Positions 1 to 19,789 of a stretch of DNA of 64,000 nucleotides are shown here, in pieces. The DNA is from Prochlorococcus sp. AG-315-B03 (GTDB lineage: Bacteria > Cyanobacteriota > Cyanobacteriia > PCC-6307 > Cyanobiaceae), in the NCBI GenBank assembly GCA_003283745.1, contig QBWA01000001.1:3605-67604 (forward strand), read 5' to 3'. The notes under the pieces were generated by a model. The model made no database searches. It was given only the letters and a program-made list of their open reading frames with translations, and had not been told where the DNA came from. A program made the translations under genes and the position numbers. How positions within the stretch are numbered: the first letter of the stretch is position 1; every line of letters begins with the position of its first letter.

Positions 1-242
1 CCAAATGGGAAATACCAGAATCACAAGAGTTCAGAGACGAGAATACTTTAGAATCTACGGCAATATATTATACGGATAAAGCTAATGACTATAGAGAAGA
101 AGATTGGATTTTAATTTCTTGTAAATCGAATACAATTTCCCTTGAGGATTCAAACAATGATCAAGAGGAATTGCGTCCTCCAAAAAATAAATCGGAGGAG
201 AGTCTAATTAAAGAAGAATGTAAAAGGCTAGGACAGAAATAG
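1..242 (+). CDS. 3' end of a hypothetical protein (partial)
   Basis: Frame 3 is open from the window edge to TAG at 240-242 (KWEIPESQEF...EECKRLGQK). Confidence 0.5.
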   Translation, partial: KWEIPESQEFRDENTLESTAIYYTDKANDYREEDWILISCKSNTISLEDSNNDQEELRPPKNKSEESLIKEECKRLGQK

Positions 243-434
243 ATTGATCTGAGATTATTTCAGCAGTTTTATATAAATTAATTTAATAATATGATTCCTA
301 TACATAAAGGATTTCATTTAAGTCTTTTCCCTCTCCCCTTTAGAAGATCCATAGAGGATAAGCAGTTAAGAATTTCTTCTAATGGCACAATCAGGTTTTA
401 TCCGTTTAGATGACCTTCCCGATGAAAATATTGA

Positions 435-1346
435 ATGAAAGGAAAACAGCCTGATATCGAAGCGACAGACCAAGACCAGTCTCAAGATGAGTTCACAGCA
501 GTCTCCAATATTTTGATTAGTAATTTCAATGAGATTGAGGATCGTTCTCGTGGAACCTCTGTTGCAGGGCTTCCTGTCAATTTCTATGACTTTGATGCAA
601 TGACTCAAGGTTTGCAGAGGGGAGATTTAATTGTTCTAGGTAGTAGACCATCCATGGGTAAAACATCTTTGGCTTTAAATATGGCCAAGAATGTTGCTCA
701 ACTTCATAGCCTTCCTGTATGCATCTTTGACTTGGAAATGAGCAAAGAGCAGCTCACCTATCGATTGATATCAAGTGAGGTAGGTATTGAAACCAGTCGA
801 TTAAGAACTGGACGTTTACAAGAAGATGAGTGGCCTGACTTGGGAGAAGGGCTTGAAAGACTTGGTCAATTACCAATCTTCATTACAGATAAAAGCAAGG
901 TCACTGTCGATGAAATGATTAGCAAATGCCAAGGAATCAAAGAGCAACACAAGACGGAATTGGGGTTGATTGTGATTGATTATCTGCAGCTCATGGATGG
1001 TCCTTTGTATGAATCAAGAGACGAAGAACTCTCCAAGGTTGTCGTTCAGTTAAAAGAGATGGCAAAAGTTCTAAACGTACCGGTCATCGTTTTATCTCAA
1101 CTTGATCGTGAAATCGAGCATCGGCCAAATAAGCGTCCGATGCTAAGTGATATCAGAGAGACACAATCACTCGAAAGCCATGCTGATGTCGTTACCATGA
1201 TTTACCGAGATGAGTACTACAACCCTGAGACAGAAGATCGTGGCATTACTGAACTCATTACTTGTAAGCACCGGAATGGTCCTCTCGGTACAGTTAAACT
1301 CCTATTTGAACCCCAGTTCACACGGTTTAGAAATTTAGCTGCTTAG
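435..1346 (+). CDS. DnaB-like helicase, C-terminal RecA-type domain only
   Basis: Walker A GSRPSMGKT, LEMS, Walker B IVIDYLQL, LSQL, KHRNGP; only 303 aa with an in-frame TGA directly before the ATG. Confidence 0.9.
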   Translation: MKGKQPDIEATDQDQSQDEFTAVSNILISNFNEIEDRSRGTSVAGLPVNFYDFDAMTQGLQRGDLIVLGSRPSMGKTSLALNMAKNVAQLHSLPVCIFDLEMSKEQLTYRLISSEVGIETSRLRTGRLQEDEWPDLGEGLERLGQLPIFITDKSKVTVDEMISKCQGIKEQHKTELGLIVIDYLQLMDGPLYESRDEELSKVVVQLKEMAKVLNVPVIVLSQLDREIEHRPNKRPMLSDIRETQSLESHADVVTMIYRDEYYNPETEDRGITELITCKHRNGPLGTVKLLFEPQFTRFRNLAA

Positions 1347-1360
1347 TTTTTGATCCCCTT

Positions 1361-2017
1361 TTATTTTCCTAGACAAAACATTTTATAGTAAGTATCTTTG
1401 ATTTCTCCTTTCGAAGATCCATAACGTAAACCTGACCTTAAAGCTAAAGCTCGATTCTCTCCTGGACCATGATGATTGAAATCGTCGTATGCTTGATCTC
1501 CAACTGAATAAGCTGCAGCAATCATTGTTTGAACTTCGTCTAAATTAAACGAAATATTATCGGTGCTGGCCAGAATTATCCCTGCGTAACAGTCAGCCTG
1601 AAGCTCAAGTCTCATTGTATTTCTTTGTGCATTTGATATTAACTTTGAGGTTGCATATTGAACATGATGTGCATATTCATGAGCAACGACAAATGATATA
1701 GCAGCCTTGCCTGCCTTCCCAAGCTCTTTCATGAACTTAGGCTCTAAGCAGATTGTTTTTGATATTGAGTTGTAGTAAGTATCTTCACACCAAGCCCATT
1801 TTATTTTTCCTGTACCGGCTACCTTGCCCATGCTATTAGCAGCTCCCTCAATCACAGTATCTACAAGCGTGTCTATGTCTCCAGTGAATTCGATGGCAGC
1901 CTTTGAAGGTAGAGCAGTAAAAGCATTTACTGCTAAAAAAGTAGATAAGGTAAATACTATTTTTGAGTAAGGAAGTCTTAATTTATGTTTGTTTAAAAGC
2001 TGTATAAATCTTCTCAT
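1361..2017 (-). CDS. Secreted neutral zinc metallopeptidase (YpfJ-like)
   Basis: Signal peptide, VVAHEYAHHVQ (HExxH), ELQADCYAG, downstream HG motif. Confidence 0.8.
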   Translation of the reverse strand: MRRFIQLLNKHKLRLPYSKIVFTLSTFLAVNAFTALPSKAAIEFTGDIDTLVDTVIEGAANSMGKVAGTGKIKWAWCEDTYYNSISKTICLEPKFMKELGKAGKAAISFVVAHEYAHHVQYATSKLISNAQRNTMRLELQADCYAGIILASTDNISFNLDEVQTMIAAAYSVGDQAYDDFNHHGPGENRALALRSGLRYGSSKGEIKDTYYKMFCLGK

Positions 2018-2144
2018 TATTAGTTTGCTTGTCTTTATTAGTTATTTTACACCTATGAAAGAAATGAATTTAGAAAACTCAGGATAGAGAAGCTTCTAGG
2101 CTATCTATTTCGATGTAGGAAGCTCTTGAGGTATATTCACTCGT

Positions 2145-2771
2145 ATGAGAGAAGATTCAGATAAATGCTCTAGATGTGGAGCACAAATAATTTGGGATAG
2201 TAAATCCTTGACAGTAGAGTGTGAATATTGTGGTAAGAAAAATTTATTTTACAATAATTTTTTAAAGATTCAGGCTATCAATTTAATTCAAAATAAAGTT
2301 AGAAGAAAATATTTATTAGGATCAATAATTTGCTTTTCATTCCTCCTGTTTTTTGTTGTATCAAGAAATAATGCCAGGGGTCCAATTGTTTCTGGAATGC
2401 GAATTATCAATAAACAAGAGCCAGATAACTATGGGATAAAAGAAAGTACTATTAGGCAAGAAAAGATTCGAGGAGAATATGGAAGGTATATATCATTTAT
2501 AGGTCGTTCTAAAAACAGATATGAAGGAACGGTGGCTGAGAATTTCTGGGGAGGTTATTCAACAATTCCTGGAGGAACTGAAGTAGGAATGTTCAAATAT
2601 ATGCTTGATTGTGAAGACAAAACATTCGATAGAAAAGGAGATAAAATCAATGCTGCTGCTCTAATAATGAAGGGATGGAGTGATGTCTCTAATGATTTAA
2701 CAGCTTCTTACGCCTCTGAATATTATTGTCCAAGGATTACAAGATTTAAGAAAAAAATTGATTTAAAATGA
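2145..2771 (+). CDS. Zn-ribbon protein with one TM segment and a soluble C-terminal domain
   Basis: CSRCGA...CEYCG at the N-terminus; hydrophobic YLLGSIICFSFLLFFVV. Confidence 0.7.
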   Translation: MREDSDKCSRCGAQIIWDSKSLTVECEYCGKKNLFYNNFLKIQAINLIQNKVRRKYLLGSIICFSFLLFFVVSRNNARGPIVSGMRIINKQEPDNYGIKESTIRQEKIRGEYGRYISFIGRSKNRYEGTVAENFWGGYSTIPGGTEVGMFKYMLDCEDKTFDRKGDKINAAALIMKGWSDVSNDLTASYASEYYCPRITRFKKKIDLK

Positions 2772-2823
2772 TTTTCAATTATCAATCAATCAATCAAATA
2801 AAAAAACCAACTGATTAGTTTAT

Positions 2824-3405
2824 ATGAATGATCTAAGTATTAAATGTTCAAATTGTGGAGCCTCATCATTCATACATGTGAATAGGAAATTAATCGAATG
2901 TGAGTATTGTGGTAAAACCCAATCAATTGGAAATTGGAGAGATGAAGAGGATGATTGGGAGAATGAGAATATTCGACAATTTAATAAAGATATTTATAGT
3001 GAGCAATTAAGTGACTTTTATACTGAGAGTGTAGAAGGATTAAGAAAAGAATTTCATTTGCTAAGGAAAGGAATAAAAAGAAAAGGAATATTCCCTATCG
3101 TTTTAGATGTTTATACCAGAGCCTTAAATAAAATCGCATACATGCTGAATAAAGATTTTTCTACGAATATTTTTAATGGACTTGGATTTGCTCAGTTGAT
3201 ATTTATTATTTATAATGTTTTTTTCATTCGTTCATTGACATTGGTATCTAGGAATTCTCATGAAATAGTTATTGGAGGTACAATAGTTAATATAATTATA
3301 TTGGTTACTCTGTTTGTAGATTTAGACATTAAATCAAAGAGGAAAAGTGAAATTCTCTTTTGGTTGGTAGTTTCAACTATTGTTGGGATCTTGCTAGGCT
3401 ATTGA
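2824..3405 (+). CDS. Zn-ribbon membrane protein, about 3 C-terminal TM segments
   Basis: CSNCGA...CEYCG; three hydrophobic segments. Confidence 0.7.
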   Translation: MNDLSIKCSNCGASSFIHVNRKLIECEYCGKTQSIGNWRDEEDDWENENIRQFNKDIYSEQLSDFYTESVEGLRKEFHLLRKGIKRKGIFPIVLDVYTRALNKIAYMLNKDFSTNIFNGLGFAQLIFIIYNVFFIRSLTLVSRNSHEIVIGGTIVNIIILVTLFVDLDIKSKRKSEILFWLVVSTIVGILLGY

Positions 3406-3486
3406 TAAATTTATTGATCATTATTAAGATAGTATATTAGAAGTTTGATAGTGAGTATTCTTCTCTATCAAAAATAATAAGGAGTT

Positions 3487-3924
3487 TTGAAATTGGTAAA
3501 CGCAAGTCTTAATTGGGCAAGTATCGTTGGGATTGTGCTTGCATCCTGTGGAGCATATTTATTCTTTCTACGTAGCTTCAAACCTCACTTAAGCAAAGAT
3601 AAGGATATTTTTTATTCAGGTATTGGATTGCTGTGTGGAGGTATTCTGTTTTTTCAAGGTTGGAGACTTGACCCAATCCTTCAATTTGGACAATTCTTAT
3701 TGGCTGCTACTACGATAAGCTTTGCTTACGACTCCGTTAGATTGAGAAAGATAGAGAATCTTTATATGAATCGAAAGTTTGATGCTAGTCCCATAAAAAG
3801 ATCATTACCTAATGAGACTAATGATGACTGGAATAATATCAACCCAGTTCCTAGAATGAAAGAGAGAACAGTTACAGGAACTAGCGTTAAATGTTCTTAT
3901 TGTGGTGCTTCTGTTGATATTTAA
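3487..3924 (+). CDS. Ycf66-family N-terminal domain fused to a short tail ending in a half Zn-knuckle; start may be TTG at 3493
   Basis: NASLNWASIVGIVLA...FFQGWRLDPILQFGQFLLA is the Ycf66 signature; ends KCSYCGASVDI; AAGGAG RBS at 3479-3484. Confidence 0.8.
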   Translation: MKLVNASLNWASIVGIVLASCGAYLFFLRSFKPHLSKDKDIFYSGIGLLCGGILFFQGWRLDPILQFGQFLLAATTISFAYDSVRLRKIENLYMNRKFDASPIKRSLPNETNDDWNNINPVPRMKERTVTGTSVKCSYCGASVDI

Positions 3925-3936
3925 TAAGTTAAACGA

Positions 3937-4608
3937 ATGAGAAATATTCCTCAGAACTGTACAAGATGTGGGGCTCCTATCAAACTTGAAAATAAGTCTA
4001 ATCAAAATGCCTGTGAATATTGTGGAGAGTTATTTAGACCAAAGATTGATAATATACCGAGGAATAATTCAAGAATTTTAGAGTATTTCCCAGAGACAAA
4101 TCTTGAGGAGTTTTCATCAAGAAAACCTATCAAAAGAAATACATTTGTAGACAAACAATATAAGGATGAGATTGAAAATGATTTTTATTTAGAAGATGAA
4201 GAGCAATTTGATTATGTAGAGGATAAAGAAGAATATTTAGATGAGGTTAATTATAGCCAAAATGAGAAGATGTACCCCTTAAAAGGAAGTGCTCTTCAAA
4301 GATTCTTCTGGTCAATTAGTTCATATCCAACGAAAGATAATGTGAGAAATAGAACCAGTGAATTGGGAAGATGGTCTCTTAAATTCTCTCTAATTAATTT
4401 TATTGGGTTCTTTATATTGATCCTCACTTCCATGAGATATCCTGACAATGAAAATCTTGTTGCTTTTATAGTTGTAATTATTTTACTGACAGGAGCTCTT
4501 GGCTTGCTTAGCGGGGTATTGGCTTTATTTCAAAATAATGGTCGTATACAAGCTTTCATTGGAACGATTTGGTCTTCAATATCTATATATCTTTTGTTCA
4601 AAACGTAA
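3937..4608 (+). CDS. Zn-ribbon membrane protein with acidic linker and about 3 TM segments
   Basis: CTRCGA...CEYCG; D/E-rich linker; hydrophobic C-terminus. Confidence 0.7.
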   Translation: MRNIPQNCTRCGAPIKLENKSNQNACEYCGELFRPKIDNIPRNNSRILEYFPETNLEEFSSRKPIKRNTFVDKQYKDEIENDFYLEDEEQFDYVEDKEEYLDEVNYSQNEKMYPLKGSALQRFFWSISSYPTKDNVRNRTSELGRWSLKFSLINFIGFFILILTSMRYPDNENLVAFIVVIILLTGALGLLSGVLALFQNNGRIQAFIGTIWSSISIYLLFKT

Positions 4609-4724
4609 TTTTGAATTACTAAAATATTGAATTAGTAGAATTTGAAAGAAAACTCTTCAGAAGAATAGTTAAAAAAGAAATATAAGCAGTCTTCAGTTTC
4701 TAATTAGATAAAAGATAGGCCATG

Positions 4725-4766
4725 TATACAGGGGGAATTATCCAACCACCTCCCTATACAGGGGGA
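4725..4766 (+). repeat. 12-bp direct repeat TATACAGGGGGA x2
   Basis: Copies at 4725-4736 and 4755-4766. Confidence 0.75.
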
Positions 4767-4870
4767 CGAGTGATTGTGATTGTGTCTAGGAATATTTCTA
4801 CCGTGAGTCAGGACGAGATACCAACTTGCGGTAGGTATGAATCATTTCCCCAGGGAAAATAAAATACACA

Positions 4871-5638
4871 ATGAACTTAGAAATAACAAAGGTCCTCACG
4901 CCAGTAAATGAAGATGGTGAGATTGATCATCGTTTTCAAGAAGATCAACAATGGATTATTGAACAAATTGATCCTGATGATATACATGCATTAAGGGACT
5001 TCAGGCAGAAGACAACTGATTTAGAAAATGAGTATGGAAGTGTTGCTATTAGGCTCTGCCATGTTTTCTTTGATCGTATTTCATATATTGATGAGAATGA
5101 AAATGAGCTGACTAATAAATGGCGATGGCGGTCTAAGAAACTTAGATCGCATTTGCAACCGATGCTTCAAGGCTTGGGATTTAAACCTGCTAATGCAAGT
5201 AAATTAATTGGAGCCACAGAGCTTGTTCATCGTCTAAAGGCAAACCTGTTTAGGGGATTAGTTGATGGAGAAAATAAGGGTGTGAGACGGAGTCTTGACT
5301 TTGTTGAGTCGTTTCCGCTCTCATCTCAATATGTCCTGAGTTGCATGAGTTCAACTGGGTTTGACTTTGCTGAAGGCGCTCGCACTTGGGCTCCATATAA
5401 CAGTGAGCCTTTTGAAAAACAGCTAACCAAAAAAGAACTAGAAGAGATTCAAAAAAATTTTCCAAAAAATACAAAATCATCTCGTACTTACAAACAGAAA
5501 AGATATGAAAAGGTATTAGAACTGAATCCTTTGATTAAAACAAACTGCCTTGAGAGTCATCACCATGATCAATTCCATCTGGGTGAATTACCTTTGCGTA
5601 CTGCTCTGAGTAGGCACAGTTCTTGCAACTCTCATTAG
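4871..5638 (+). CDS. Hypothetical protein, 3' end possibly truncated
   Basis: 255-aa ORF; last 104 nt overlap the convergent nuclease gene. Confidence 0.6.
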   Translation: MNLEITKVLTPVNEDGEIDHRFQEDQQWIIEQIDPDDIHALRDFRQKTTDLENEYGSVAIRLCHVFFDRISYIDENENELTNKWRWRSKKLRSHLQPMLQGLGFKPANASKLIGATELVHRLKANLFRGLVDGENKGVRRSLDFVESFPLSSQYVLSCMSSTGFDFAEGARTWAPYNSEPFEKQLTKKELEEIQKNFPKNTKSSRTYKQKRYEKVLELNPLIKTNCLESHHHDQFHLGELPLRTALSRHSSCNSH

Positions 5639-6395
5639 GTTCTGGGATCTGGTTCTGATTCATCAGGTAAACCATGTCATCAATCTCTTCTTCTATCCAA
5701 CTCATATTCCAGTTGTAAGGAACAAGGTATTCATCAAAACGCATGGTCTTATGGAATCCGTCTTCATCTCTTTTGGCATTGCAGACTAAGAAGTAAGCAG
5801 TCGGGTGCACATCAAAACCCATGCCTGAAAGTAGATAGGCATAGAAGTCCATTTGGATTTTGTACCCCTCATGATATGGATCATCCAAATATTCTTGCTT
5901 ATCAACTCTTCCGTTTTTTGCTTGTGATTTGTAGTCAACAACGATCAATTTGTTTGTACGTGTGTCCTGCCAAATATCGTCTACTCCACCTGTGAGGATG
6001 ATGCTTGAGTTCTTGTGTCTAAGCATCAATCCATGGTGCAGAGAGTTCCTCCAGTTATCCATTTCTGGATGATCAAAAGGCACGACATGACTTAAACCAT
6101 TAGGAGCAAACAAACGATGCGGTGTCTGTTTCTCTCTGCATTCATCGAATTCTTTTTTGAGGAGTAAATCAGTTGTTTCATTGAGAGTCCAACCGGGTGT
6201 TCCGGGTGGGTCTAAACCTTTGACACGATTGAGATAAAAGCATCTAGGGCAGGTAAGAAAATCAGAGAATTTACCTCTACTAACTTTGAAGTCTTCTAGT
6301 TGATTAGGTGTATAAATCGATGATGCTCTGGTTCTGCATCCAGTTGCTTTGACGGGTAATTTCTTGCTGTTCCGTTTGAGATCAATCATTCGCAA
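5535..6395 (-). CDS. PD-(D/E)XK nuclease (AddB/Cas4-like)
   Basis: CPRC near the N-terminus, GGVDD and VVDYKS catalytic motifs, QMDFY, C-terminal CKNC. Confidence 0.85.
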   Translation of the reverse strand: MRMIDLKRNSKKLPVKATGCRTRASSIYTPNQLEDFKVSRGKFSDFLTCPRCFYLNRVKGLDPPGTPGWTLNETTDLLLKKEFDECREKQTPHRLFAPNGLSHVVPFDHPEMDNWRNSLHHGLMLRHKNSSIILTGGVDDIWQDTRTNKLIVVDYKSQAKNGRVDKQEYLDDPYHEGYKIQMDFYAYLLSGMGFDVHPTAYFLVCNAKRDEDGFHKTMRFDEYLVPYNWNMSWIEEEIDDMVYLMNQNQIPEPNESCKNCAYSEQYAKVIHPDGIDHGDDSQGSLF

Positions 6396-7093
6396 TGCTC
6401 CTTTAATAATTTCGCAGCATCTGCATCACCTAGTTCTGCTGCTTTCTTCCAGTCTTCACAGGCACCTTTGAGATCTCCTAGTTCTTTTTTTGCATTGCCA
6501 CGGTGATGATATTTATCAGCATGTTTTGAATCTAATTCAATCGCTATATTTATATCTTCAATTGCTCCTTGATAGTCGCCTGATTCATGCTTAACAATTC
6601 CACGGGTTAAAAGGATAAATGCATTCTTTGGATTAATTTTTAGTGCCTTGGTGTAGTTATTAATTGCTTCTTGGAAATCACCTAGTTCTTCTTCCAGATC
6701 GCCACGTTCGCAATAGATATCAGAATCTATTGGGTTAATTTCTAATATCTTGGTGTAATCAGCAATTGCTCCTTGGAAATCATTTAATTCATTCTTGCTA
6801 TCACCACGTTTTTTATAAGCACTTAATAGGTTTGGATTATTCTTTAATGCTTCGTTGTAATCAGCAATCGCTTCTGGAAAATTACCTTTATTAAACGCAG
6901 TATTCCCTTGCCTAAAATAAATTTCTGCATTCTGTTTTTGTTTCTTACTTTTTCGTTTTGCAATCATTAACCCTACCCCTACCCCTACCACAGTCAATCT
7001 AATGACATCTGATTTATCAATGTTCAGCAGAGACAAACCAGCAGCAATCCCAGCACCTATTCCTAAAGCAATAGCAGTATTTCTGAGTTTCAT
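6386..7093 (-). CDS. Membrane-anchored TPR repeat protein
   Basis: Two N-terminal hydrophobic segments; about five TPR units (AIADYNEALK, AIADYTKILE, AINNYTKALK); GACEDWKKAAELG tail. Confidence 0.9.
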   Translation of the reverse strand: MKLRNTAIALGIGAGIAAGLSLLNIDKSDVIRLTVVGVGVGLMIAKRKSKKQKQNAEIYFRQGNTAFNKGNFPEAIADYNEALKNNPNLLSAYKKRGDSKNELNDFQGAIADYTKILEINPIDSDIYCERGDLEEELGDFQEAINNYTKALKINPKNAFILLTRGIVKHESGDYQGAIEDINIAIELDSKHADKYHHRGNAKKELGDLKGACEDWKKAAELGDADAAKLLKEHCE

Positions 7094-7183
7094 TCAGTGC
7101 TCTTTTATGAATGCACTCTAGGCAATCGGTTTTTTCTATCAACGGATCATTTATCAGTTGCATTAAGTCAATAGAAGTAGGCA

Positions 7184-7279
7184 CAAAAAAACCGCCCCGT
7201 TCTGAACAAGGCGGTTCTTTTGGAGATCAGACGCAAGTGTTTCCTTGTTTCCACTGCGGAGGATCCCGACTCCTCACAA
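7184..7279 (-). ncRNA. yfr2: Yfr2-family (Cyano-1 type) small RNA
   Basis: Minus strand reads UUGUGAGGAGUC, then stem GGGAUC..CGCAGU / loop GGAAACAAGGAAAC / ACUUGCG..GAUCUC, then terminator AACCGCC...GGCGGUU plus U-run. Confidence 0.85.
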
Positions 7280-7370
7280 AGTGAACTTATGGGAAAGGAC
7301 AAGGGATCTCAAGTATTAACAGATGAGTTCCTTAACTGTCACATGTGCCAATTCTTGAAAATAAGGCATT

Positions 7371-7445
7371 AAAAAAACACCCTACTTAAGCAAAGTCGAG
7401 TGCTTTTTTAAAACAGAACGATTGTGTGAGGAGTTGTTCTGTTAG
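7371..7445 (-). ncRNA. Yfr1/Yfr10-type small RNA carrying ACUCCUCACAC
   Basis: Minus strand: stem AACAGAAC / loop AACUCCUCACACAAUC / GUUCUGUU, then terminator GCACUC...GGGUGU plus U-run. Confidence 0.75.
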
Positions 7446-7499
7446 TTCATTTCTACACATGCTCGAACCTTTTGTCACTACTAAAAAGACAAACCCATT

Positions 7500-7976
7500 T
7501 CAGCAATCTGCATTAGCAATACCCATACCAAGAACAGCACCTAAAGGAACACTCCACCCATAAGCATCTTTCTTTGATAGGGCAGCAGCAAGACCACCTC
7601 CAAGTAATCCACCTGCGGTTGCACTGCTTGAACTACAACTTCCACCGCTGGATGTATAACTCCGAGAAACTAAAACTTGTCGGTGAGTTGGTCTGTAATA
7701 CCTGCGATGAGTGTGAGGGGAGTAATGAGCGTGATTATGGTGATGACGATATTTACGAACTGGTGAATTCCAACTAAGTGAAGTACAAGGGACTTCAACT
7801 TTGTCGGTATAGGACTTCACATATCCTTTAGAAAATCTATTCCCAGCAACATATTCCTCTTTATAGATTTCCTTGTAGCAAGACCTTTGGGTTATGTATC
7901 CAGGTTGATATTGATCTGCCATCGCTGCTGTTGGTGATACAAGCATTGCAGCGATAAATAGTGGTTGAAATTTCAT
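7500..7976 (-). CDS. Secreted His-rich protein with C-terminal glycine-zipper 2TM domain
   Basis: Signal peptide ending AMA; RHHHNHAH; GGLLGGGLAAALS...PLGAVLGMGIA. Confidence 0.8.
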   Translation of the reverse strand: MKFQPLFIAAMLVSPTAAMADQYQPGYITQRSCYKEIYKEEYVAGNRFSKGYVKSYTDKVEVPCTSLSWNSPVRKYRHHHNHAHYSPHTHRRYYRPTHRQVLVSRSYTSSGGSCSSSSATAGGLLGGGLAAALSKKDAYGWSVPLGAVLGMGIANADC

Positions 7977-8029
7977 AGTTCCTTTCTCTCTGCTTCTATT
8001 GTGACATCTTTTGTTGAGTCAGTAAGAAC
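7965..8029. repeat. 65-bp degenerate direct repeat, copy A (promoter, RBS and first codons of the glycine-zipper gene)
   Basis: Ungapped 52/65 identity to 10841-10905, counted by hand. Confidence 0.8.
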
Positions 8030-8065
8030 AATCAGTACAGTTCTTTTTAATTTATCAATTTAGAT

Positions 8066-8161
8066 TAATTTATTCCAATCTTGTCAGGGTAATTCTCACA
8101 TGACTCTGCAAATGAACTTAAGGGAAAGCAAATAGAAGATATAACTAATAAAGGTAGATTT
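8066..8161 (-). pseudogene. Duplicated 5' fragment of the 8160-8690 gene
   Basis: 96 bp with about 6 mismatches to 8563-8658. Confidence 0.85.
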
Positions 8162-8690
8162 ATTTTGATAAAGATCTTTTCATCTCAGACTCTAATTTCT
8201 CTGCGGCACGAATTGAATCTGAACTAACCTCAACTGAAACCTTAACTAACTCTCCAGAGACATAACAATTATCAGTCATCGTAACTCCTCTAAGAATTGA
8301 GGATGTTTGAAAATTATATGATTTAAAAGTTCTTTTTAATTTCCTATTGATTTTATTTTTATCTAATCCATTCACTCTAATTTTAAGAGGTTCAGTCTTA
8401 TCTTTCTTAGAAGCATTAGTCATCATTTTAATGAATCTAGAAATATTAACGATCGCCGCATCTTCTGCTTCTTGTGTGGCATCTAAATAAGTTTCTTGAT
8501 CATCAAATTCAACGGCAACTTCTGTTGATGAGATGATTTTGAATTTACCATTTGATTCCATATAATTTATTCCATTTTTGTCAGGGTAATTCTCACATGA
8601 TGCTGCAAATGAACTTAAGGGAAAGAAAATAGAAAATATAACTAATAAAGGTAGATTTGTTTTATTAATTATATTTTTAGTTCTGATCAT
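8160..8690 (-). CDS. Secreted protein, LPP20-like, paralog of 10075-10692
   Basis: Signal peptide; ASCENYPDKNG...KIISSTEVAVEFDD...ILRGV...CYVSGELVKVSV. Confidence 0.7.
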   Translation of the reverse strand: MIRTKNIINKTNLPLLVIFSIFFPLSSFAASCENYPDKNGINYMESNGKFKIISSTEVAVEFDDQETYLDATQEAEDAAIVNISRFIKMMTNASKKDKTEPLKIRVNGLDKNKINRKLKRTFKSYNFQTSSILRGVTMTDNCYVSGELVKVSVEVSSDSIRAAEKLESEMKRSLSK

Positions 8691-10039
8691 ATTTGTATAT
8701 ATTGAAGAGTTACTTCTTGAATACTATTCATTAATTCATTGCTTGGTTCAATTATCAAAAGCATTCTGGACTGATCATAAATACCAGGATGTCTTCTATC
8801 ATTGGATACTAAATCATTATATAATCTCCCCCTAGGCATTTGTAAATACTCAGGAGATGTAGCAGTGACATCATCTTTCAAATATGTAGTTACAGTCTTA
8901 ATACCAGCAGAGAAACCTTCTCTTCCTTCCCTAATATCTAACCCATAACATGAAGAGAAATCTTTTTGCCAAATTGATTCTTTCTTACTATTAATAAACT
9001 GCAATCTAAGTTTAGGGTAATGTTTATCACATTCATACCTTCTATAGGCAAAGATGGGAACAGATTTTTTACTTCCTGCTCTTATTCTTGCTGTGTTATA
9101 TTCCCTTGTATTAGGTATTATGTATCTAATATAACTCTTCGATTTAGTATTAATTATATTCATTACATGGTCTCTAGTTGAATTATATATAGAAGAATCA
9201 ATTCTATAGTCATATTTCCCTGATTTACTCTGTCTGTGCTCACTAATATTATCAAGAATTTTAATTGTATTTTCTAGGTAATCTTTTTTTATATCAAAAG
9301 TAATTGGTATTACTAAGGATCCTTTTACTGAGAAGTTTCTTATTTTGGCATTGGAGGTGGAGTTACTATCGTCGTGATTACATCCTCTAATTTGAGTATT
9401 TACCTTATCAAATTTACAACCAAAAGCAGATAATTCTTCTAGTCTTTGAGGCGTACCAATATTAATATCAATAACTTCTGCATTAATTAATGGATTAATT
9501 ATTTTTCCTAGCAAGTCAAGTTTATTTTCAATATTATCTTCATCAGTTTTGATACTGGAAAATAAACCCTGATTAATTTTCTTAGATTCAAATGCCAACT
9601 CTTTTATGTATGCCCTGAAATCTTCTACTCTTACATCAACTCTTGCAGTGACATTATAAATTGCACCATTTTGTTGGACATTAAGGACTTCAAAGTATTT
9701 AATTGATCCTTGTGAATAATCTCTTATATCTTTTTTAATAACCTTTGTTTTACTAATCACTCCATCTCTAATTTCTTTTTGTTTTTTAATTTGAGTCTCT
9801 GCGTCAATAAAAGAACCAACAACTTGAGTTAATGCATTCTCAGCAGCATTTTGAGCAGCAGCATCGACAGAGGTTCCATATCCACTTGCCGTCACCGTTT
9901 GAATGATCTTTTCGTCAGATACTGCTGCATTACTAATAAGGGTTGTATTTTTATTCTCTACTGCTTCTAGAGATGAAAACACCTGACCTGCATAGGAAGG
10001 AGGAAGGAGCAGGAATAAAAATAGTGCTATTAAACGCAT
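8687..10039 (-). CDS. Secreted protein with N-terminal LPP20/FlgT-N-like domain
   Basis: Signal peptide; TVTASGYGTSVDAAAQNAAENALTQVVGSFIDAET...SQGSIKYFEVL...YNVTARVDV. Confidence 0.7.
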   Translation of the reverse strand: MRLIALFLFLLLPPSYAGQVFSSLEAVENKNTTLISNAAVSDEKIIQTVTASGYGTSVDAAAQNAAENALTQVVGSFIDAETQIKKQKEIRDGVISKTKVIKKDIRDYSQGSIKYFEVLNVQQNGAIYNVTARVDVRVEDFRAYIKELAFESKKINQGLFSSIKTDEDNIENKLDLLGKIINPLINAEVIDINIGTPQRLEELSAFGCKFDKVNTQIRGCNHDDSNSTSNAKIRNFSVKGSLVIPITFDIKKDYLENTIKILDNISEHRQSKSGKYDYRIDSSIYNSTRDHVMNIINTKSKSYIRYIIPNTREYNTARIRAGSKKSVPIFAYRRYECDKHYPKLRLQFINSKKESIWQKDFSSCYGLDIREGREGFSAGIKTVTTYLKDDVTATSPEYLQMPRGRLYNDLVSNDRRHPGIYDQSRMLLIIEPSNELMNSIQEVTLQYIQI

Positions 10040-10074
10040 TTGATTGATTTATAAATTAAGAAGTTAATCTCTCT

Positions 10075-10692
10075 TTAAAAATCACTATTGTAATCTGAGT
10101 ATCCATCCATTGAATTAAATCCAGATGAATTGGATCCTGAGTTATTAGAGGAAAAACCAGACCCAGAATTATTTCTACTGTTTTTCATATTTTGATTTAG
10201 TCGACTTGCACTTACTATCGTTTCAGGTTTGATTCCAATCGTTAATTTTACAAATTTACCTGGGGTATAGCATCTTCCAACATCGACAACTCCATTTAGA
10301 ATTGCTGCTGTACTTTCAACAGTGCTACATAAAGTAGTTTTAATTTTTTCGATATTAACGTTTTTAGATTCGTTCCCAGAAGGATCCTTGCTCATTAAAG
10401 TTTTTGATAATTTGTTGGTTTTTCTTTCGCAATCTTTGGCAATTTTAGATTCCATAAAATCTGAAATTTGTGCTTTTGCTTCTGCTCTCGCTTCGGCATA
10501 TGCATCCATCACTTCGTCTGCATCATCAAAAGGAACAGAGACTTGATAAGTAGAAATTATCTTTGGACCCTTTTCCTGAGGAATAATAGTTGCTCCATTC
10601 TTGCTTGGATAGTCTTTACATGAAGAAGCAAATGCATTTAAAGGCAATAGAAAAGAAACAAATAAGGATGTTGAAGCAGCAAATATTTTCAA
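10075..10692 (-). CDS. Secreted protein, LPP20-like, with Ser/Asn/Gly-rich tail
   Basis: Signal peptide; SSCKDYPSKNG...KIISTYQVSVPFDD...ILNGV...CYTPGKFVKLTI. Confidence 0.7.
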   Translation of the reverse strand: MKIFAASTSLFVSFLLPLNAFASSCKDYPSKNGATIIPQEKGPKIISTYQVSVPFDDADEVMDAYAEARAEAKAQISDFMESKIAKDCERKTNKLSKTLMSKDPSGNESKNVNIEKIKTTLCSTVESTAAILNGVVDVGRCYTPGKFVKLTIGIKPETIVSASRLNQNMKNSRNNSGSGFSSNNSGSNSSGFNSMDGYSDYNSDF

Positions 10693-10840
10693 TTGATAAA
10701 GTTAGAAACTGATTGATTTTATACCATTACTTTTCCGTGGGTTTTTTTTTTATTTGCTCGCTTATTTTTGTATCATTTCCTCGCCTCTTTTAGAGAATTT
10801 AAAGAAGTTCTTTTAATTCAGTTAACTAAACAAGTAATAA

Positions 10841-10905
10841 TTGGAAGTTCATAGTTCCATTCTCGCTATTTTTATTTTGAGATCTTTTTGTGAATCAGCA
10901 AGAAC
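10841..10905. repeat. 65-bp degenerate direct repeat, copy B; relic gene start MNFQLLLV*
   Basis: Ungapped 52/65 identity to 7965-8029. Confidence 0.8.
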
Positions 10906-10956
10906 GAAGAGGAGAGTTATTCTTAACGTTTCAATTACCATATGATTAACGAACAC

Positions 10957-11037
10957 CATATAGAACATATTAAAATATACAAATAACTGGGTTTTATTGT
11001 TTCATTAACTTGTTCTATATGCTATTGTTTCAATAAC
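10957..11037. promoter_or_regulatory. Putative res-like recombinase binding region
   Basis: Perfect 11-bp inverted repeat CATATAGAACA (10957-10967) / TGTTCTATATG (11011-11021); direct repeat TATTGTTTCA(T/A)TAAC at 10995 and 11023; directly upstream of the resolvase. Confidence 0.5.
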
Positions 11038-11055
11038 AAGGTTTTCTAGAACACT

Positions 11056-11700
11056 TTGGGCAAATTCAAAGGATTCCAAAGGGAATCTCCGTTATTCATG
11101 GACAGACCAAAATACAAAAAGATTGGATATGCGAGGAGCAGTTCTGCAACATCCAAGTTTGGATTGGAATCACAAGTCGCTCAACTTAGAGAAGATGGAT
11201 GCGATCAAATATTTTCTGAAGTTATTTCTACGCAAGTTAAGGATTCTGATCGTCCACAACTTCAAGCAGCATTAGCAGCAATGGAAGAAGATTCAGAATT
11301 AGTTCTATGCAAATTGGACAGAGGTTTCAGGACTCAAAAAGAAACCATCAACGTCTTGCATGATTTACAAGAACAGAAGAAGCACTTACGCACACTCGAT
11401 GGACTCATATCGACTCGTGGACTTGGACAGTTTGCACCAATCCTTCTGGGTCTTTTAAGTGGATTAAATCAAGTTGAGCGTTCCATGATTGCCGAACGCA
11501 AGCAAGAAAGTTTGGACTACAGAAGATCTATTGGTGCTTCTCTAGGTGGCAGACCAAAGACGAATAAAGCAAAAGAAGGTTTAGTAGTTCGTTTAAGAGA
11601 TGAAGGTTGTTCTTATAGAAATATCAGAGATCAAACTGGACTTGCACTTGCAACCATTAGACGAATTATTGTTGAGCAAGAAGAAGCGGTGGCGGTATGA
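11056..11700 (+). CDS. Small serine recombinase (resolvase/invertase); start may be ATG at 11098
   Basis: IGYARSS catalytic motif, DRPQL, KLDRGFR, LGGRP, C-terminal HTH (GCSYRNIRDQTGLALATIRRII). Confidence 0.92.
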   Translation: MGKFKGFQRESPLFMDRPKYKKIGYARSSSATSKFGLESQVAQLREDGCDQIFSEVISTQVKDSDRPQLQAALAAMEEDSELVLCKLDRGFRTQKETINVLHDLQEQKKHLRTLDGLISTRGLGQFAPILLGLLSGLNQVERSMIAERKQESLDYRRSIGASLGGRPKTNKAKEGLVVRLRDEGCSYRNIRDQTGLALATIRRIIVEQEEAVAV

Positions 11701-11894
11701 CTAGAAAAAATATAGGGGGATTATCTGACTACATTGTTTTGAAGGAAGAGAAGGAAGTTGTCTTTTATTTGCATAATCCCTATCCAGATTGCTTAGAAAT
11801 TCCAGCAATAATGAAGGCAAGATTTCCTGAGGATTTCAAGAGCATAGTTACAAGTTCCTTAGAGGAGTTCAAAAAGTATGGAGGGAAAGCATGA
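11697..11894 (+). CDS. Hypothetical protein
   Basis: ATGA overlaps with the resolvase and with the next gene. Confidence 0.65.
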   Translation: MTRKNIGGLSDYIVLKEEKEVVFYLHNPYPDCLEIPAIMKARFPEDFKSIVTSSLEEFKKYGGKA

Positions 11895-12121
11895 AAGAAG
11901 AAATCAACTGGAGGGAAGAAATGAAGGCATATACCAGCAGTAAATATGAGTTGGGGTTGCTTGAGAACGGACCCCGTAGTTTGTCCCAATCTTGGATAAT
12001 GGGTGCATTACATCAGAAATGGAAAAAGATAAAAGGTATTCCTCCAGATCCAGCACCACCTGATTGCAGTTCAAGTTTTCAGGAGTGGAATAAGAATGTG
12101 GAGGATGCTCAAAAACCATGA
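11891..12121 (+). CDS. Hypothetical phage-like small protein
   Basis: GGAGGG RBS, translational coupling, Trp-rich 76 aa. Confidence 0.65.
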   Translation: MKEEINWREEMKAYTSSKYELGLLENGPRSLSQSWIMGALHQKWKKIKGIPPDPAPPDCSSSFQEWNKNVEDAQKP

Positions 12122-12149
12122 CACTTCGTATTAGTTCTTCTCCATGTTG

Positions 12150-12392
12150 CTAATCCTGTTTACTAGGTTCTACCCACCCAACCTTTTGCCAAGCATCACC
12201 ATATAAATGGTTGAGTCGTACAGACTCCATTTGCTCTGTCCAGTAAGTCATATCCCAACCGTTCTGCATGCAATACAAAATCCGATCCAAATAATGGTCC
12301 CTTCTCACTTCACTTTTGATTAGTTGCAATCTTTCATTCCACCATTGCCATTCTGGTGATTTCATAATTGCTGTTTTTGATTTTTTAGTCAT
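12150..12392 (-). CDS. Hypothetical protein
   Basis: TAATG coupling to the upstream ORF, GAGGAGGA RBS. Confidence 0.6.
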   Translation of the reverse strand: MTKKSKTAIMKSPEWQWWNERLQLIKSEVRRDHYLDRILYCMQNGWDMTYWTEQMESVRLNHLYGDAWQKVGWVEPSKQD

Positions 12393-12643
12393 TAGTTATC
12401 CTCCTCTAATTTTTTTATTGCTCTTTCAACCCTTCCACCCTTTTCAAAATCTTCTTTAACGGGATGAAAATCCATATAGATTTGAATAGCACTTTCAGTC
12501 ATTAAAGATAAATACTCTCTAATTTCTTTTACTGATACGTAATCCTTGTTACTCCAATTACTCTTTGTTTCGTACCAGAGGATGCCCTCATAAAGTTCAA
12601 CACCAGTGATTTGTCTGGGGCAAGTTTCCTGCTTTTTTCTCAT
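12392..12643 (-). CDS. Hypothetical protein
   Basis: 83-aa ORF with GAGGA RBS, coupled to 12150-12392. Confidence 0.6.
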   Translation of the reverse strand: MRKKQETCPRQITGVELYEGILWYETKSNWSNKDYVSVKEIREYLSLMTESAIQIYMDFHPVKEDFEKGGRVERAIKKLEEDN

Positions 12644-13059
12644 TAGTTTTCCTCAGTAGTTGTGTTTGATTGGATAGTGATAAGCAGTTCTTTTGCTTCA
12701 GTATTAGGTGGAAATAAATTCACAAGTTAAAAGACTTATTTCTTATCCTGATGCCAGTTTGGGATTGTTTTATTCATCCCGTTTGCATAGACTTATTATA
12801 GCACAAGTATACGCTAACTGTGCATTCTGCTTCACGCTTCTTAATAGTGATACCAATGGATCTTGACTTTTTGTCTTTGCTATTAATAATACAAATTAAT
12901 CAAATTAGGTTTATATTAGCAATAGATAGTGGGAAGACAGTAAATGTTGTTCTGTTATGCAAAAAAGGCAGATACTATAAACCTACAGATGCGGCAAATC
13001 GAGCATTAAATATCACTCTCTAAAAATATTCCTCCAGAAAAAATTCCCAGGCATAAGAT

Positions 13060-13392
13060 TCAACTATTTTGCTTTTCAAATTTGTACCTTTCAGCAAGAT
13101 ATGGTTTGAACATCCAAAAGAAATTCTCAAAGCAAACATTGGTCCTGCATTCAGATGATCCTCTGCGGGTGCAATGGAAATCATAGAGATACTCACAGTT
13201 CTTCTTTGGCAGAAAGGCAGCAGTCCTCTTTTTCTGATTGCTTGGTTTATTTGATGTACCCCAGCAGAAAGGACAGGCAAAGGTGTACTTCTTAGTTCTC
13301 CTCACATATTCTTGTTTTATTTCACTTGTAGGTGGAATAGAACTTTGTATGTGTGGCAAAACAAGATCAATATACTTTTGGTCTAAACTCAT
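13060..13392 (-). CDS. Stand-alone primase-type zinc-binding domain protein
   Basis: YTFACPFC...YDFHCTRRGSSEC resembles the N-terminal Zn domain of phage primases; GGAGAG RBS. Confidence 0.55.
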   Translation of the reverse strand: MSLDQKYIDLVLPHIQSSIPPTSEIKQEYVRRTKKYTFACPFCWGTSNKPSNQKKRTAAFLPKKNCEYLYDFHCTRRGSSECRTNVCFENFFWMFKPYLAERYKFEKQNS

Positions 13393-13804
13393 AAACTCTC
13401 CTAATTCTAAGATTGAAAATATTCACAACTCCCTAAATCTTTTAGTGAGTATGTTAATTATATGTCAACTATTTATATTAGTCAAATGTTAAGAATGCTT
13501 CATAATTGTAGTTAGTAAAATATCCAAATAGCATACATAGTGATGTAGACTCCTGCATAATATTACTATTAGATAACTATAGAATACTTAGAAGAGATTA
13601 GGGGCAAATAGTTAATAAAACAGAGATAGTTCACGTAAGTGAACCAATTCCGAAGGAATTGCTATTGAGTAATATCAAATAAAAGATAGGTGCACGTTGT
13701 ACCTTAGAGAGTAAGAACAAAAGATTTATAAATATTCCTAATAGAGATTAATCATTACTCTATTCAATAACTCAAAAACCTATATACCTTTTATATATAA
13801 AACT

Positions 13805-13999
13805 ATGTCTATTTGTAAACCAATTACAAGAAGAAGATGTATCAACTACAAGAAGAGAGTTGCACCTGTGATTACAAGAATGGAAGAGAAGTTGTGTGAT
13901 GAGATGGGACTAAGCATCTCTGAATTGCATATTGAAGGTATTAAAAGGATGTGGAACACACGTCAGACCTTTGAGCAATTGCAATTGGAGATGGTTTAG
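13805..13999 (+). CDS. Small protein, possible ribbon-helix-helix DNA binder
   Basis: EKLCDEMGLSISELHIEGIKRMW resembles the helix-G-x-S-x-S-helix pattern. Confidence 0.5.
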   Translation: MSICKPITRRRCINYKKRVAPVITRMEEKLCDEMGLSISELHIEGIKRMWNTRQTFEQLQLEMV

Positions 14000-14007
14000 G
14001 AATGCCC

Positions 14008-14136
14008 ATGAAAACAATAAAAGTTAACCCAGTGAGATATCAAATTCTCACTGAACTAACTAAGTCCAGCAAGTTCTCAACCATTGAAAATTATCTGGGA
14101 GATCTAATTGATTCCACCTATGCCAAGAAGAAGTAA
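14008..14136 (+). CDS. 42-aa small protein absent from the ORF track, possible ribbon-helix-helix
   Basis: MKTIKVNPVRYQILTELTKSSKFSTIENYLGDLIDSTYAKKK; AGGA RBS; TAATG coupling to the next gene. Confidence 0.55.
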   Translation: MKTIKVNPVRYQILTELTKSSKFSTIENYLGDLIDSTYAKKK

Positions 14137-14339
14137 TGGCATTAAATCCATATGAAATGAGATGGGAGATCTTGCAAAGGGCAATGGATATACAAACAGA
14201 GAGGTACAAGGACTCTGTTCAGAGATGGCATGATCGCCTTTTGCATGATCAAGATCCACAAAAATATCCTGATTACCCATCGAATGATGAAATGTATGCC
14301 TTAGCAGAAGAGATGAAAACTTTTGTCAGCACCGAATAA
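14136..14339 (+). CDS. Hypothetical phage-like small protein
   Basis: NPYEMRWEILQRA...YPSNDEMYALAEEMKTFV; coupled start. Confidence 0.65.
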   Translation: MALNPYEMRWEILQRAMDIQTERYKDSVQRWHDRLLHDQDPQKYPDYPSNDEMYALAEEMKTFVSTE

Positions 14340-14431
14340 AACGAGGACTAATCAAATGGACATTGGACAACAACAGGCAGATGCCAAACAAACAACAAGT
14401 CTGATTGGACAGACCTTCTATTTCATCGTTG

Positions 14432-14457
14432 AATCCTTCTAACTCAGGAGGATTTTT
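14432..14457 (+). terminator. Intrinsic terminator between convergent genes
   Basis: AATCCTTCT-AACTC-AGGAGGATT followed by a T-run. Confidence 0.5.
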
Positions 14458-14462
14458 GATGT

Positions 14463-14798
14463 TTAATTGCTTTTGCAGAACCCATTCCCCTTGTACTGAG
14501 TCCCAGAAGGGCAAGATGTTCCGCTAGATCCACCACCACGGAAGAATTGCTTGTAATCGTTTGATTTGCAGAACCCATTTCCTTTGTATTGACTGCCAGA
14601 GGGACAAGCAGTTCCACTGTTTCCACCACCACGGAAGAACTGTTTCCCGTCAGATGAACTGCAAAATCCATTTCCTTTGTATTGACTTCCTGATGGACAG
14701 GCAGAACCACTTGAACCACCTCCTCTAAAAACTTGAGCAGAAGCAGAAGTTCCCAAACAACTTGCGATCACGATTAAGGGAAGAAAATATTTTTTCAC
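14463..14798 (-). CDS. Secreted Gly/Cys-rich peptide with three 31-aa tandem repeats
   Basis: Signal peptide ending SASA; FRGGGxSGxxCPSGxQYKGNGFC x3 (93-bp unit). Confidence 0.85.
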   Translation of the reverse strand: MKKYFLPLIVIASCLGTSASAQVFRGGGSSGSACPSGSQYKGNGFCSSSDGKQFFRGGGNSGTACPSGSQYKGNGFCKSNDYKQFFRGGGSSGTSCPSGTQYKGNGFCKSN

Positions 14799-14851
14799 TG
14801 GATAAATTGCCTCAGACTTTGATCCAATCTAGTCCTGAGGGAAGGTTATAA

Positions 14852-14899
14852 ATTTCGGGAACTTTTGAAAATGATTTCGGGAACTTTTCGGGAACTTTT
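14852..14899. repeat. TTCGGGAACTTTT x3, putative integrase arm-type binding sites
   Basis: Copies within 14852-14866, 14874-14888 and 14887-14899, about 150 bp from the tRNA-Thr 3' end. Confidence 0.75.
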
Positions 14900-14980
14900 G
14901 GTTTTTATTTTTTAGAGTATGCTGATGGTTCCTGATTGATACTTTTCACTGAATTGCAGTGATACCAACCCATTGGTATT

Positions 14981-15006
14981 AAAAAAGAGACCATTTGAGG
15001 TCTCTT
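14981..15006 (-). terminator. Intrinsic terminator of the tRNA operon
   Basis: Minus strand AAGAGACC-TCAAAT-GGTCTCTT plus T-run. Confidence 0.7.
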
Positions 15007-15042
15007 GATTACGGTTGAATCTCTTTGATGTCCCTCCGACGA

Positions 15043-15114
<72 letters not shown>

Positions 15115-15125
15115 TTGTGGAAAGA

Positions 15126-15207
15126 TGGGCCGGGTTGGATTTGAACCAACGTAGGCAGAGCCAGCGGATTTACAGTCCGCCCCCATTAACCACTCGGGCA
15201 CCGACCC
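15126..15207 (-). tRNA. trnY: tRNA-Tyr(GTA)
   Basis: GGGTCGGTGCCCGAGTGGTTAA...GACTGTAAATC...long variable arm...GTTCAAATCCAACCCGGCCCA. Confidence 0.97.
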
Positions 15208-15315
15208 GATCCACGAAAAGACATTACCAGTCAACGGTGCCATTTTTCTTGAATTTGTTGGTCCTTTGAGCTTTGAATCGATACGATCTTTAAAGACCTT
15301 CAATTTGCAAATCAT

Positions 15316-15768
15316 ATGGATCTTTTATTGATTAATGGTCCTAATTTGAACCTTGTGGGCCAAAGGGAACCTGCTTTGTATGGATCTCAGAGTTTAACTG
15401 ATATCGAAAAAGAATTATTGGAGACGGCAAATGAACTTGAGGTGAAACTCAAATTCTTTCAAAGTAATTCGGAAGGTGAAATTATTGATTGCATTCATAA
15501 TTGTATTAATTCAATTGATGGAATATTAATAAACGCTGGAGCTTATACTCATACTTCAATTGCACTTAGAGATGCTTTATTAGGAGTTGAAATTCCCTAT
15601 GTTGAATTACATCTCAGCAATATTTATTCAAGAGAAGAATTTCGCCATAAATCATTTTTGGCTGATAGAGCGGTTGGTGTTATTTGTGGATTTGGATCAA
15701 TTAGTTATCAACTAGCTTTGAAAGGAATGGTGGCCCACATCAATGGATCTATAAAAAATCAAGGATAA
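15316..15768 (+). CDS. aroQ: Type II 3-dehydroquinate dehydratase
   Basis: [35 protein letters not shown]. Confidence 0.96.
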
Positions 15769-15772
15769 TCTG

Positions 15773-16375
15773 ATGTCAAATATTAAAAACCACCAAAAAA
15801 TTCGTTGGCTAATTAGTAAAACTAGTGATGCTTGGATACAGCAAGCAATATCTCATCCAATGGAAATACTTTTGGATCATGCTCATTGCGAGAGAAAAGC
15901 TGCTGGAGTAGCTCTTCAATTAATGTTTCGTTACGTAAGTGAACCTGGTTTGTCTGAGGTCTTGAGCCCGCTTGCGAGGGAAGAATTGGAACATTTTGAA
16001 AGGGTATTGTCCATTTTGAAAACACGAGGAGAAAAACTTAAACAATTACCTTCCCCACCTTATGGAGCTATTTTGTCAAAGAATGTTCGAAAAAAAGAAC
16101 CAGAAAGAATGCTTGATAGTTTTCTTGTTGCTGGTTTGATTGAAGCAAGGAGTCATGAAAGAATGTCATTGCTAGCTTTGTATTCTTCTGATATTGAGAT
16201 TCGTAGTTTGTATGAGGATTTATTGAAAAGTGAGGCAAGACATTTTAGTATTTATTGGAATTTGGCTGATGAACGATTTGATACGAATAATGTTGTGTCT
16301 AGATTAGAAGAATTGGCCATAATTGAATCTGATGCTCTTGTTGAGCTTCACAATGAGCCAAGAATGCATAGCTAA
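15773..16375 (+). CDS. miaE: tRNA-(ms2io6A) hydroxylase
   Basis: DHAHCERKAA, EELEHF, IEARSHER, SEARH di-iron motifs. Confidence 0.93.
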   Translation: MSNIKNHQKIRWLISKTSDAWIQQAISHPMEILLDHAHCERKAAGVALQLMFRYVSEPGLSEVLSPLAREELEHFERVLSILKTRGEKLKQLPSPPYGAILSKNVRKKEPERMLDSFLVAGLIEARSHERMSLLALYSSDIEIRSLYEDLLKSEARHFSIYWNLADERFDTNNVVSRLEELAIIESDALVELHNEPRMHS

Positions 16376-16404
16376 TTAAGTATTAATTTTAAGTTGAATA
16401 GACT

Positions 16405-17145: not shown

Positions 17146-17153
17146 TTTTTTTG

Positions 17154-18146: not shown

Positions 18147-18409
18147 CTTTTATATAGTATTAATTACTAAATACATGGAAAGCCTATGCTTTTAAGTGGT
18201 TTAATTGAAGCAATCAATTAGATATGTATTGCTAGTAATGATTTCAGATCTTTTAAATGATTGATTTTTTCTGACCTTAATCTTTTGACCGGAAATTGAC
18301 TTTGAGATCTCATGTTGGATTCCTACTCTTTGCTGATACTTGCAGTATGAAGAATTAACCTCTTATTGGACCTATAAAGGTTAAATAATCTTATGAAAGG
18401 AAGAGGGAT

Positions 18410-19780: not shown

Positions 19781-19789
19781 TCTTTACTT

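Follow-up and report, generated by a model that had tools for sequence, protein, structure and literature searches.

Tandem Yfr10-type and Yfr2 sRNA genes in a tRNA-proximal genomic island of Prochlorococcus sp. AG-315-B03

The window (the whole stretch of DNA that was analysed, 64,000 nucleotides) carries two small RNA genes in tandem on the minus strand. They lie between a TPR gene (6386-7093; TPR_1 at 110 bits) and a gene encoding a Gly-rich membrane protein (7500-7976). Two minus-strand units, each with its own terminator, had been placed here by the first-pass annotation; folds and U7 runs bear out both at the same coordinates. Two of its labels are amended. The gap was called ORF-free: long ORFs are indeed absent, but short overlapping ORFs of 30-57 aa are present. 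The neighbouring gene was called a glycine zipper gene: this label was given by eye, and no Pfam match was found for the Gly-rich membrane protein that the gene encodes. Terminators were taken from the folds and from the U-runs in the sequence; the promoter/terminator scanner returned only plus-strand mirror images of both hairpins and no minus-strand terminators. The assembly comprises 957 kb in 61 contigs, is 56% complete and has 34.8% GC. Given ~35% GC and genomes of 1.8-2.0 Mb, the genus is presumed to be, probably, the LLI (NATL-type) clade. The features of the locus are the following.

~7490-7184, minus strand: cassette of ~300 bp containing both sRNA genes.
7478-7473 and 7455-7450, minus strand: promoter-like elements of the upstream unit (GTGACA, 17-nt spacer, TAGAAA), predicted from resemblance to the consensus only.
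7443-7371, minus strand: Yfr10-type sRNA gene, ~73 nt (RF02362 alignment and fold).
7443-7436 with 7419-7412, minus strand: 8-bp stem, AACAGAAC with GUUCUGUU (fold).
7434-7424, minus strand: motif ACUCCUCACAC in a 16-nt loop.
7403-7378, minus strand: terminator hairpin of the upstream unit, followed by U7 at 7377-7371 (fold and sequence).
7353-7334, minus strand: imperfect palindrome AATTGGCACATGTGACAGTT, before the promoter-like elements of Yfr2, candidate regulator-binding site.
7312-7307 and 7289-7284, minus strand: putative promoter-like elements of Yfr2 (TTGAGA, 17-nt spacer, TAAGTT), taken from the sequence.
7279-7185 (approximate), minus strand: Yfr2-family (Cyano-1) sRNA gene, ~95 nt (RF01701 match).
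7279-7269, minus strand: Yfr2 5' motif UUGUGAGGAGU (read from the sequence).
7252-7239, minus strand: Yfr2 loop GGAAACAAGGAAAC, with tandem GGAAAC, of the first stem-loop (read from the sequence).
7214-7192, minus strand: GC-rich terminator hairpin of Yfr2, followed by U7 at 7191-7185 (fold and sequence).

The downstream unit is a Yfr2 gene. In the covariance-model search, RF01701 (Cyano-1/Yfr2; gathering score 41 bits) matches 7283-7219 on the minus strand with 59 bits over the full model (positions 1-69). The Yfr2 assignment of the first-pass annotation, for which such a search of Rfam had been proposed, is confirmed by this score. The 5' GUGAGGAG, the tandem GGAAAC loop, the terminator and a full-length match above threshold are common to this unit and the Rfam family; nothing material differs. 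The genus has an invariant GAUCCUCC that is also able to pair with the 5' GAGGA. UUGUGAGGAGU and GGAAACAAGGAAAC are invariant across 20 aligned cassettes (see below). In the thermodynamic ensemble, the unpaired probability is 0.88-0.95 for the 5' UGUGA and 0.11-0.19 for the GAGGA part, which is mostly paired with a downstream UCCUC. Because of this pairing, access to the 5' motif may begin at the UGUGA seed only. A GAGGA:UCCUC 5' hairpin acting as a switch was considered and rejected, compensatory support being absent from the alignment of 20 cassettes.

The upstream unit is of the Yfr10 type. RF02362 (Yfr10) aligns with it end to end, with the motif in the loop, at 32.5 bits; the gathering score of 43 is not reached. 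Its paralogs in the same genome score 33.8 and 29 bits. The Rfam Yfr10 model under-calls these copies. The unit is named Yfr10-type and is not listed as an Rfam member, because its score is below the cut-off and the published family is poorly conserved outside the motif (PMC2518516, PMC6778093). Its fold has z = -3.45 and is matched in stability by 0/200 shuffles. The motif ACUCCUCACAC lies in the loop of the 8-bp stem, as had been proposed, with an unpaired probability of 0.97-1.0. On the same strand, 151 nt separate its start from the 5' end of the downstream Cyano-1 match.

The two RNAs are complementary. Positions 7434-7425 and 7278-7269 form a perfect 10-bp duplex of -17.2 kcal/mol (isolated segments), a value equalled or exceeded in stability by 12/2000 shuffles. 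In cofolding, the optimal dimer is held by exactly this motif duplex, with a gain in stability of 8.3 kcal/mol over the two monomers. The duplex noted in the first pass is thus found in the sequence, in the segment duplex and in the cofold. Duplex folding of the whole RNAs (observed -26.6, shuffle mean -28.0) is uninformative because the poly-A/poly-U terminator tails dominate. The 11-mer motif occurs 5 times in the 957-kb assembly, vs once for the reversed control and ~0.5 expected. Chance complementarity was also considered; it is ruled out by this enrichment together with the conservation of the motif.

Conservation was surveyed in 42 species-representative genomes of the genus, 39 of which hold the 132 Cyano-1 matches found. 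ACTCCTCACAC is present upstream on the same strand in 83 of these 132 loci, at a distance of 90-160 nt in 78 of the 83. At least one pair is found in 37 of the 39 genomes with a Cyano-1 match, usually two; pairs number 0 to 4 per genome and their positions vary. An alignment over ~260 nt of 20 copies, taken from 11 genomes, shows that the ~300-bp cassette is conserved. Across these copies, pairing is maintained at 99.4% in the hairpin stem (helix 1), 95.7% in the first terminator (helix 2) and 92.3% in Yfr2 helix 3. A few pairs are changed on both sides, 2 of them in Yfr2 helix 3, and the values exceed all or nearly all shuffles. The closing pair of the upstream stem is AU, CG, UA or UG depending on the cassette. 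The exact tandem pattern is found at no fewer than 118 loci in species-representative genomes; among the matches listed, all are from Prochlorococcus (two labelled Synechococcaceae), including HL strains and MIT 1012.

Other copies are present in the same assembly. A second, clearly paralogous pair with the same spacing lies on contig C13. In total, the assembly, 56% of a genome, contains three Yfr2 genes, one Yfr1 and at least four Yfr10-type units, among them two solo units on contigs C4 and C24. The solo units are given below.

L004:1501-1585, plus strand (G000:C4:33047-33131): solo Yfr10-type hairpin unit.
L151 (G000:C24), motif at 3329-3339, minus strand: solo Yfr10-type hairpin unit.

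In another genome (G037), two tandem Yfr10-type/Yfr2 pairs 419 nt apart (C13:7984-8592, minus strand) are mirrored ~33 kb away on the opposite strand (41544-42152, plus strand). Either a segment flanked by an inverted duplication or an error of assembly could account for this arrangement.

Promoter-like blocks are kept in part with the cassette. The block AGTGACAAAAGG...GTAGAAA of the upstream unit is kept in most of the 20 cassettes despite unrelated upstream flanks. For Yfr2, TTGAG(A/T) with a TAnnnT box is found in about half of the aligned cassettes. The palindrome AATTGGCACATGTGACAGTT is kept in most of the 20 cassettes and also precedes the solo Yfr2 of contig C4. A GTTA begins ~57 nt upstream of the presumed Yfr2 start site. 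This solo Yfr2 (C4:24922-24988, minus strand; L002, G000:C4:23422-26488) has in addition a perfect palindrome, GTGACAGTTGA-CAAAC-TCAACTGTCAC, upstream; paired Yfr2 copies keep only the neighbouring AATTGGCACATGTGACAGTT block. The perfect palindrome on C4 may be the GntR/PMM1637 site, CGRE1 (PMC6191309), which in the literature is found for some Yfr2 family members only.

Two other identities of the upstream unit were weighed. That it is Yfr1 itself, or a second, island-borne copy of Yfr1, is next to excluded. The exact ultraconserved Yfr1 motif ACUCCUCACAC is present, and to this extent the tie to the Yfr1 family made by the first-pass annotation stands; the assignment does not, since the unit is Yfr10-type, has its motif in a hairpin loop and gives no match to RF01116 (Yfr1) between 7100 and 7560 even at E up to 10. 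The same model recovers the true Yfr1 of this genome on contig C8 (L150:390-448, minus strand) with 62.9 bits (cut-off 38) and with the motif between two stem-loops, so that the Yfr1 reading is refuted by the covariance-model test. A motif inside a hairpin loop is the very feature that sets Yfr10 apart: in Yfr1 the motif is flanked by two stem-loops, whereas that of Yfr10 occupies the loop atop a stem (PMC6778093). Yfr1 is moreover single-copy with conserved synteny, and guaB and trxA are not the genes flanking the unit. What is shared with Yfr1 is the identical 11-nt motif and, in the published systems, overlapping targets and sequestration by Yfr2. The second identity, in which the hairpin and terminator would do no more than end the transcript of the Gly-rich membrane protein gene, as its 3' UTR and terminator, is very improbable. 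The unit does begin 57 nt past the stop codon of this gene, on the same strand, and a homolog of the gene also abuts a motif hairpin in one other genome (G003). Against this, most other cassettes have a unit with the same -35/-10-like block preceded by unrelated sequence, and a 5' end proper to Yfr10 has been mapped in MED4 (PMC2518516); 3' UTR and sRNA roles are not exclusive.

The unit is therefore treated in what follows as a Yfr10-type sRNA gene placed directly upstream of Yfr2. Its location is a genomic island. From the tRNA-Thr/Tyr genes on, the window (15035-20000) is collinear with five complete relatives at 76-82% identity; positions 1-15000 are not, which places the pair in a variable island next to these tRNA genes. 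The island location proposed in the first pass is borne out by this comparison. In 4/5 of the complete relatives, the pairs are found ~350 kb away, at 1.35-1.40 Mb; island content resembling that of the window is found at the tRNA site in one relative only (G005), in a different gene order. The pair directly abuts a 65-aa ORF on C13 of the present assembly (G000) and in G004 and G006.

Several other features of the island were recorded. The 65-aa ORF of the window (11697-11894) is separated from the pair by ~4.2 kb. The intervening stretch (7495-11667) contains the Gly-rich membrane protein gene, three secreted-protein genes for which no Pfam match was found and a serine resolvase gene (11056-11700). 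Degenerate direct repeats are present at 7956-8060 and 10832-10936, and an inverted repeat at 10952-11026. A PD-(D/E)XK / Cas4-like nuclease gene of the island (5535-6395, minus strand) has 74-75% DNA identity to a paralog whose site (~433-449 kb) is fixed across the five complete relatives; an 85% copy is present in the tRNA-proximal island of G005. The left island edge carries a DnaB_C-only helicase gene (435-1346, plus strand; 303 aa, 309 bits), whose counterparts in the five complete relatives are elsewhere (1.24-1.37 Mb) and share 68-70% DNA identity.

The first-pass annotation had proposed a mobile module. An actively mobile regulator-plus-sponge module, moving as a unit between islands or genomes by means such as the nearby serine resolvase or a phage, appears rather improbable. 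Variation in number (0-4 pairs per genome) and in position would fit it, as would the location of the window copy in the tRNA-Thr/Tyr island when four of the five complete relatives have their pairs ~350 kb away. The flanks differ among copies, the cassette of the window is mildly mosaic between cassette types, and a resolvase gene lies 3.6 kb off; it is the closest recombinase gene (11056-11700), and four genes separate it from the cassette. Opposed to these points, no direct or inverted repeats bounding the cassette (7184-7490) were found, blastn against 50,697 phage records gave no match, and the exact tandem pattern gave none in IMG/VR. A survey of single-cell genomes and phages for the tandem order had been suggested in the first pass: it returned the pair in 37/39 genomes of the genus and no phage copies. 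A pair that almost all genomes of the genus carry, that is confined to Prochlorococcus among the matches listed and that keeps the same 65-aa ORF as a neighbour on C13, in G004 and in G006 is at odds with a mobile module, and that claim is not upheld. Near-universality in the genus and confinement to Prochlorococcus fit a pair that is passed on vertically and undergoes duplication and homologous recombination inside islands. The evidence as a whole fits duplication and recombination within islands; a self-contained mobile module is not supported by it.

Pairs of this kind were described in MED4. There, genomic island 1 has Yfr10 (78 nt) and Yfr2 on one strand, Yfr10 immediately upstream, and a 270-nt precursor contains both; Yfr12-Yfr4 and Yfr18-Yfr5 are parallel pairs, the 5' ends of Yfr2-5 are able to pair with the motif of Yfr1, Yfr10, Yfr12 and Yfr18, and about half of the ncRNAs are located in islands (Steglich 2008, PMC2518516). 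Yfr2 pulls down Yfr1 and Yfr10; Yfr1 represses a PMM1121 porin reporter, and Yfr2 restores its expression; Yfr2 blocks the binding of Yfr1/Yfr10 to ppa; Yfr2 is shielded from RNase E by pairing, and free Yfr2 is cleaved (Lambrecht 2019, PMC6778093). The regulator-plus-antagonist logic put forward in the first pass thus has experimental proof in MED4. The suggestion that the arrangement was perhaps undescribed is contradicted, adjacency, island location and complementarity of Yfr10-Yfr2, Yfr12-Yfr4 and Yfr18-Yfr5 having been published (PMC2518516). The layout is ordinary, because the island tandem was published in 2008 and the sponge function shown in 2019. The Yfr1-Yfr2 trap that Brenes-Alvarez et al. 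2020 (PMC6974561) report for Nostoc sp. PCC 7120 involves both of these sRNA families in another lineage.

The pair of the window and the Yfr10-Yfr2 pair of MED4 are alike in order and strand, with a motif hairpin sRNA directly upstream of a Yfr2 homolog. In both, the 11-nt motif, carried by a hairpin loop, is complementary to the 5' end of Yfr2, each unit has a terminator, the location is a genomic island, and the genome holds several paralogous pairs. The sizes are 78 and ~90 nt in MED4 and ~73 and ~95 nt (predicted) here. Four differences are found. The lineage is not HL: with ~35% GC and genomes of 1.8-2.0 Mb, it is probably LLI. The upstream unit is divergent and below the Rfam Yfr10 cut-off. 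The 10-mer duplex is perfect, whereas pairing in MED4 needs a bulged C and a mismatch. The MED4 pair is expressed; expression of the present pair is predicted. The published statement that Yfr10 is upstream of Yfr2 names HL strains, and Fig. S7 of the same paper covers MED4, MIT9313, SS120 and WH8102, not NATL strains (PMC6778093). An explicit Yfr10-Yfr2 tandem of LLI/NATL strains was not found in the literature; 'Yfr10' in PMC7368042 and PMC5069720 refers to Yfr103-108.

The porin link made in the first pass is supported within the window itself, which contains a porin gene whose SD region is complementary to the loop. The candidate site is given below.

53292-53283, minus strand: candidate trans target UGUGUGAGGA, over the SD region of the porin gene, 5 nt from the AUG (53278).

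In a genome scan, UGUGUGAGGA was found as the perfect 10-nt complement of the loop nucleotides UCCUCACACA. The gene (52259-53278, minus strand) is som-like: Porin_4 scores 29.8 bits (cut-off 27). Its mRNA is likely to be a trans target of the Yfr1/Yfr10 loop. It would be the counterpart of PMM1119 and PMM1121, the published Yfr1 porin targets in MED4 (PMC6778093).

The cassette is very probably the known regulator and sponge pair formed by a Yfr10-type RNA and Yfr2. Its two sRNA genes, which appear to be separately promoted and terminated, would be expressed and act as in MED4. The Yfr10-type RNA would present the anti-SD-like ACUCCUCACAC in its hairpin loop, and this loop would pair with GGAG-containing mRNA sites such as the one in the porin mRNA, with a change of translation or of stability as the expected result. 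The single-stranded 5' end of Yfr2, UGUGAGGAGU, would pair with the same loop and would therefore titrate the Yfr10-type RNAs and the single Yfr1 off their targets, as a sponge or antagonist. With the two RNAs encoded side by side, read-through may yield a co-transcript of the kind found in MED4, and their pairing may be favoured.

The gain is modest: a layout stated for HL strains is extended to a Prochlorococcus genus of ~35% GC, probably LLI, and little is added beyond annotation. The regulator-plus-sponge biology was already established in MED4; the question raised is an evolutionary one, namely by what route the cassette gains copies and changes place within islands. One scenario, tentative and on balance unlikely, can be proposed. 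The ~300-bp cassette would be a copy-number-variable module shuffled between Prochlorococcus islands by recombination and, as a mosaic copy, duplicated here to a place near a serine resolvase gene in the tRNA-Thr/Tyr island; LLI would share the arrangement stated for HL. If this is true, gain and loss of pairs would tune the regulator:sponge ratio, and hence the porin and the carbon/nitrogen metabolism targets.
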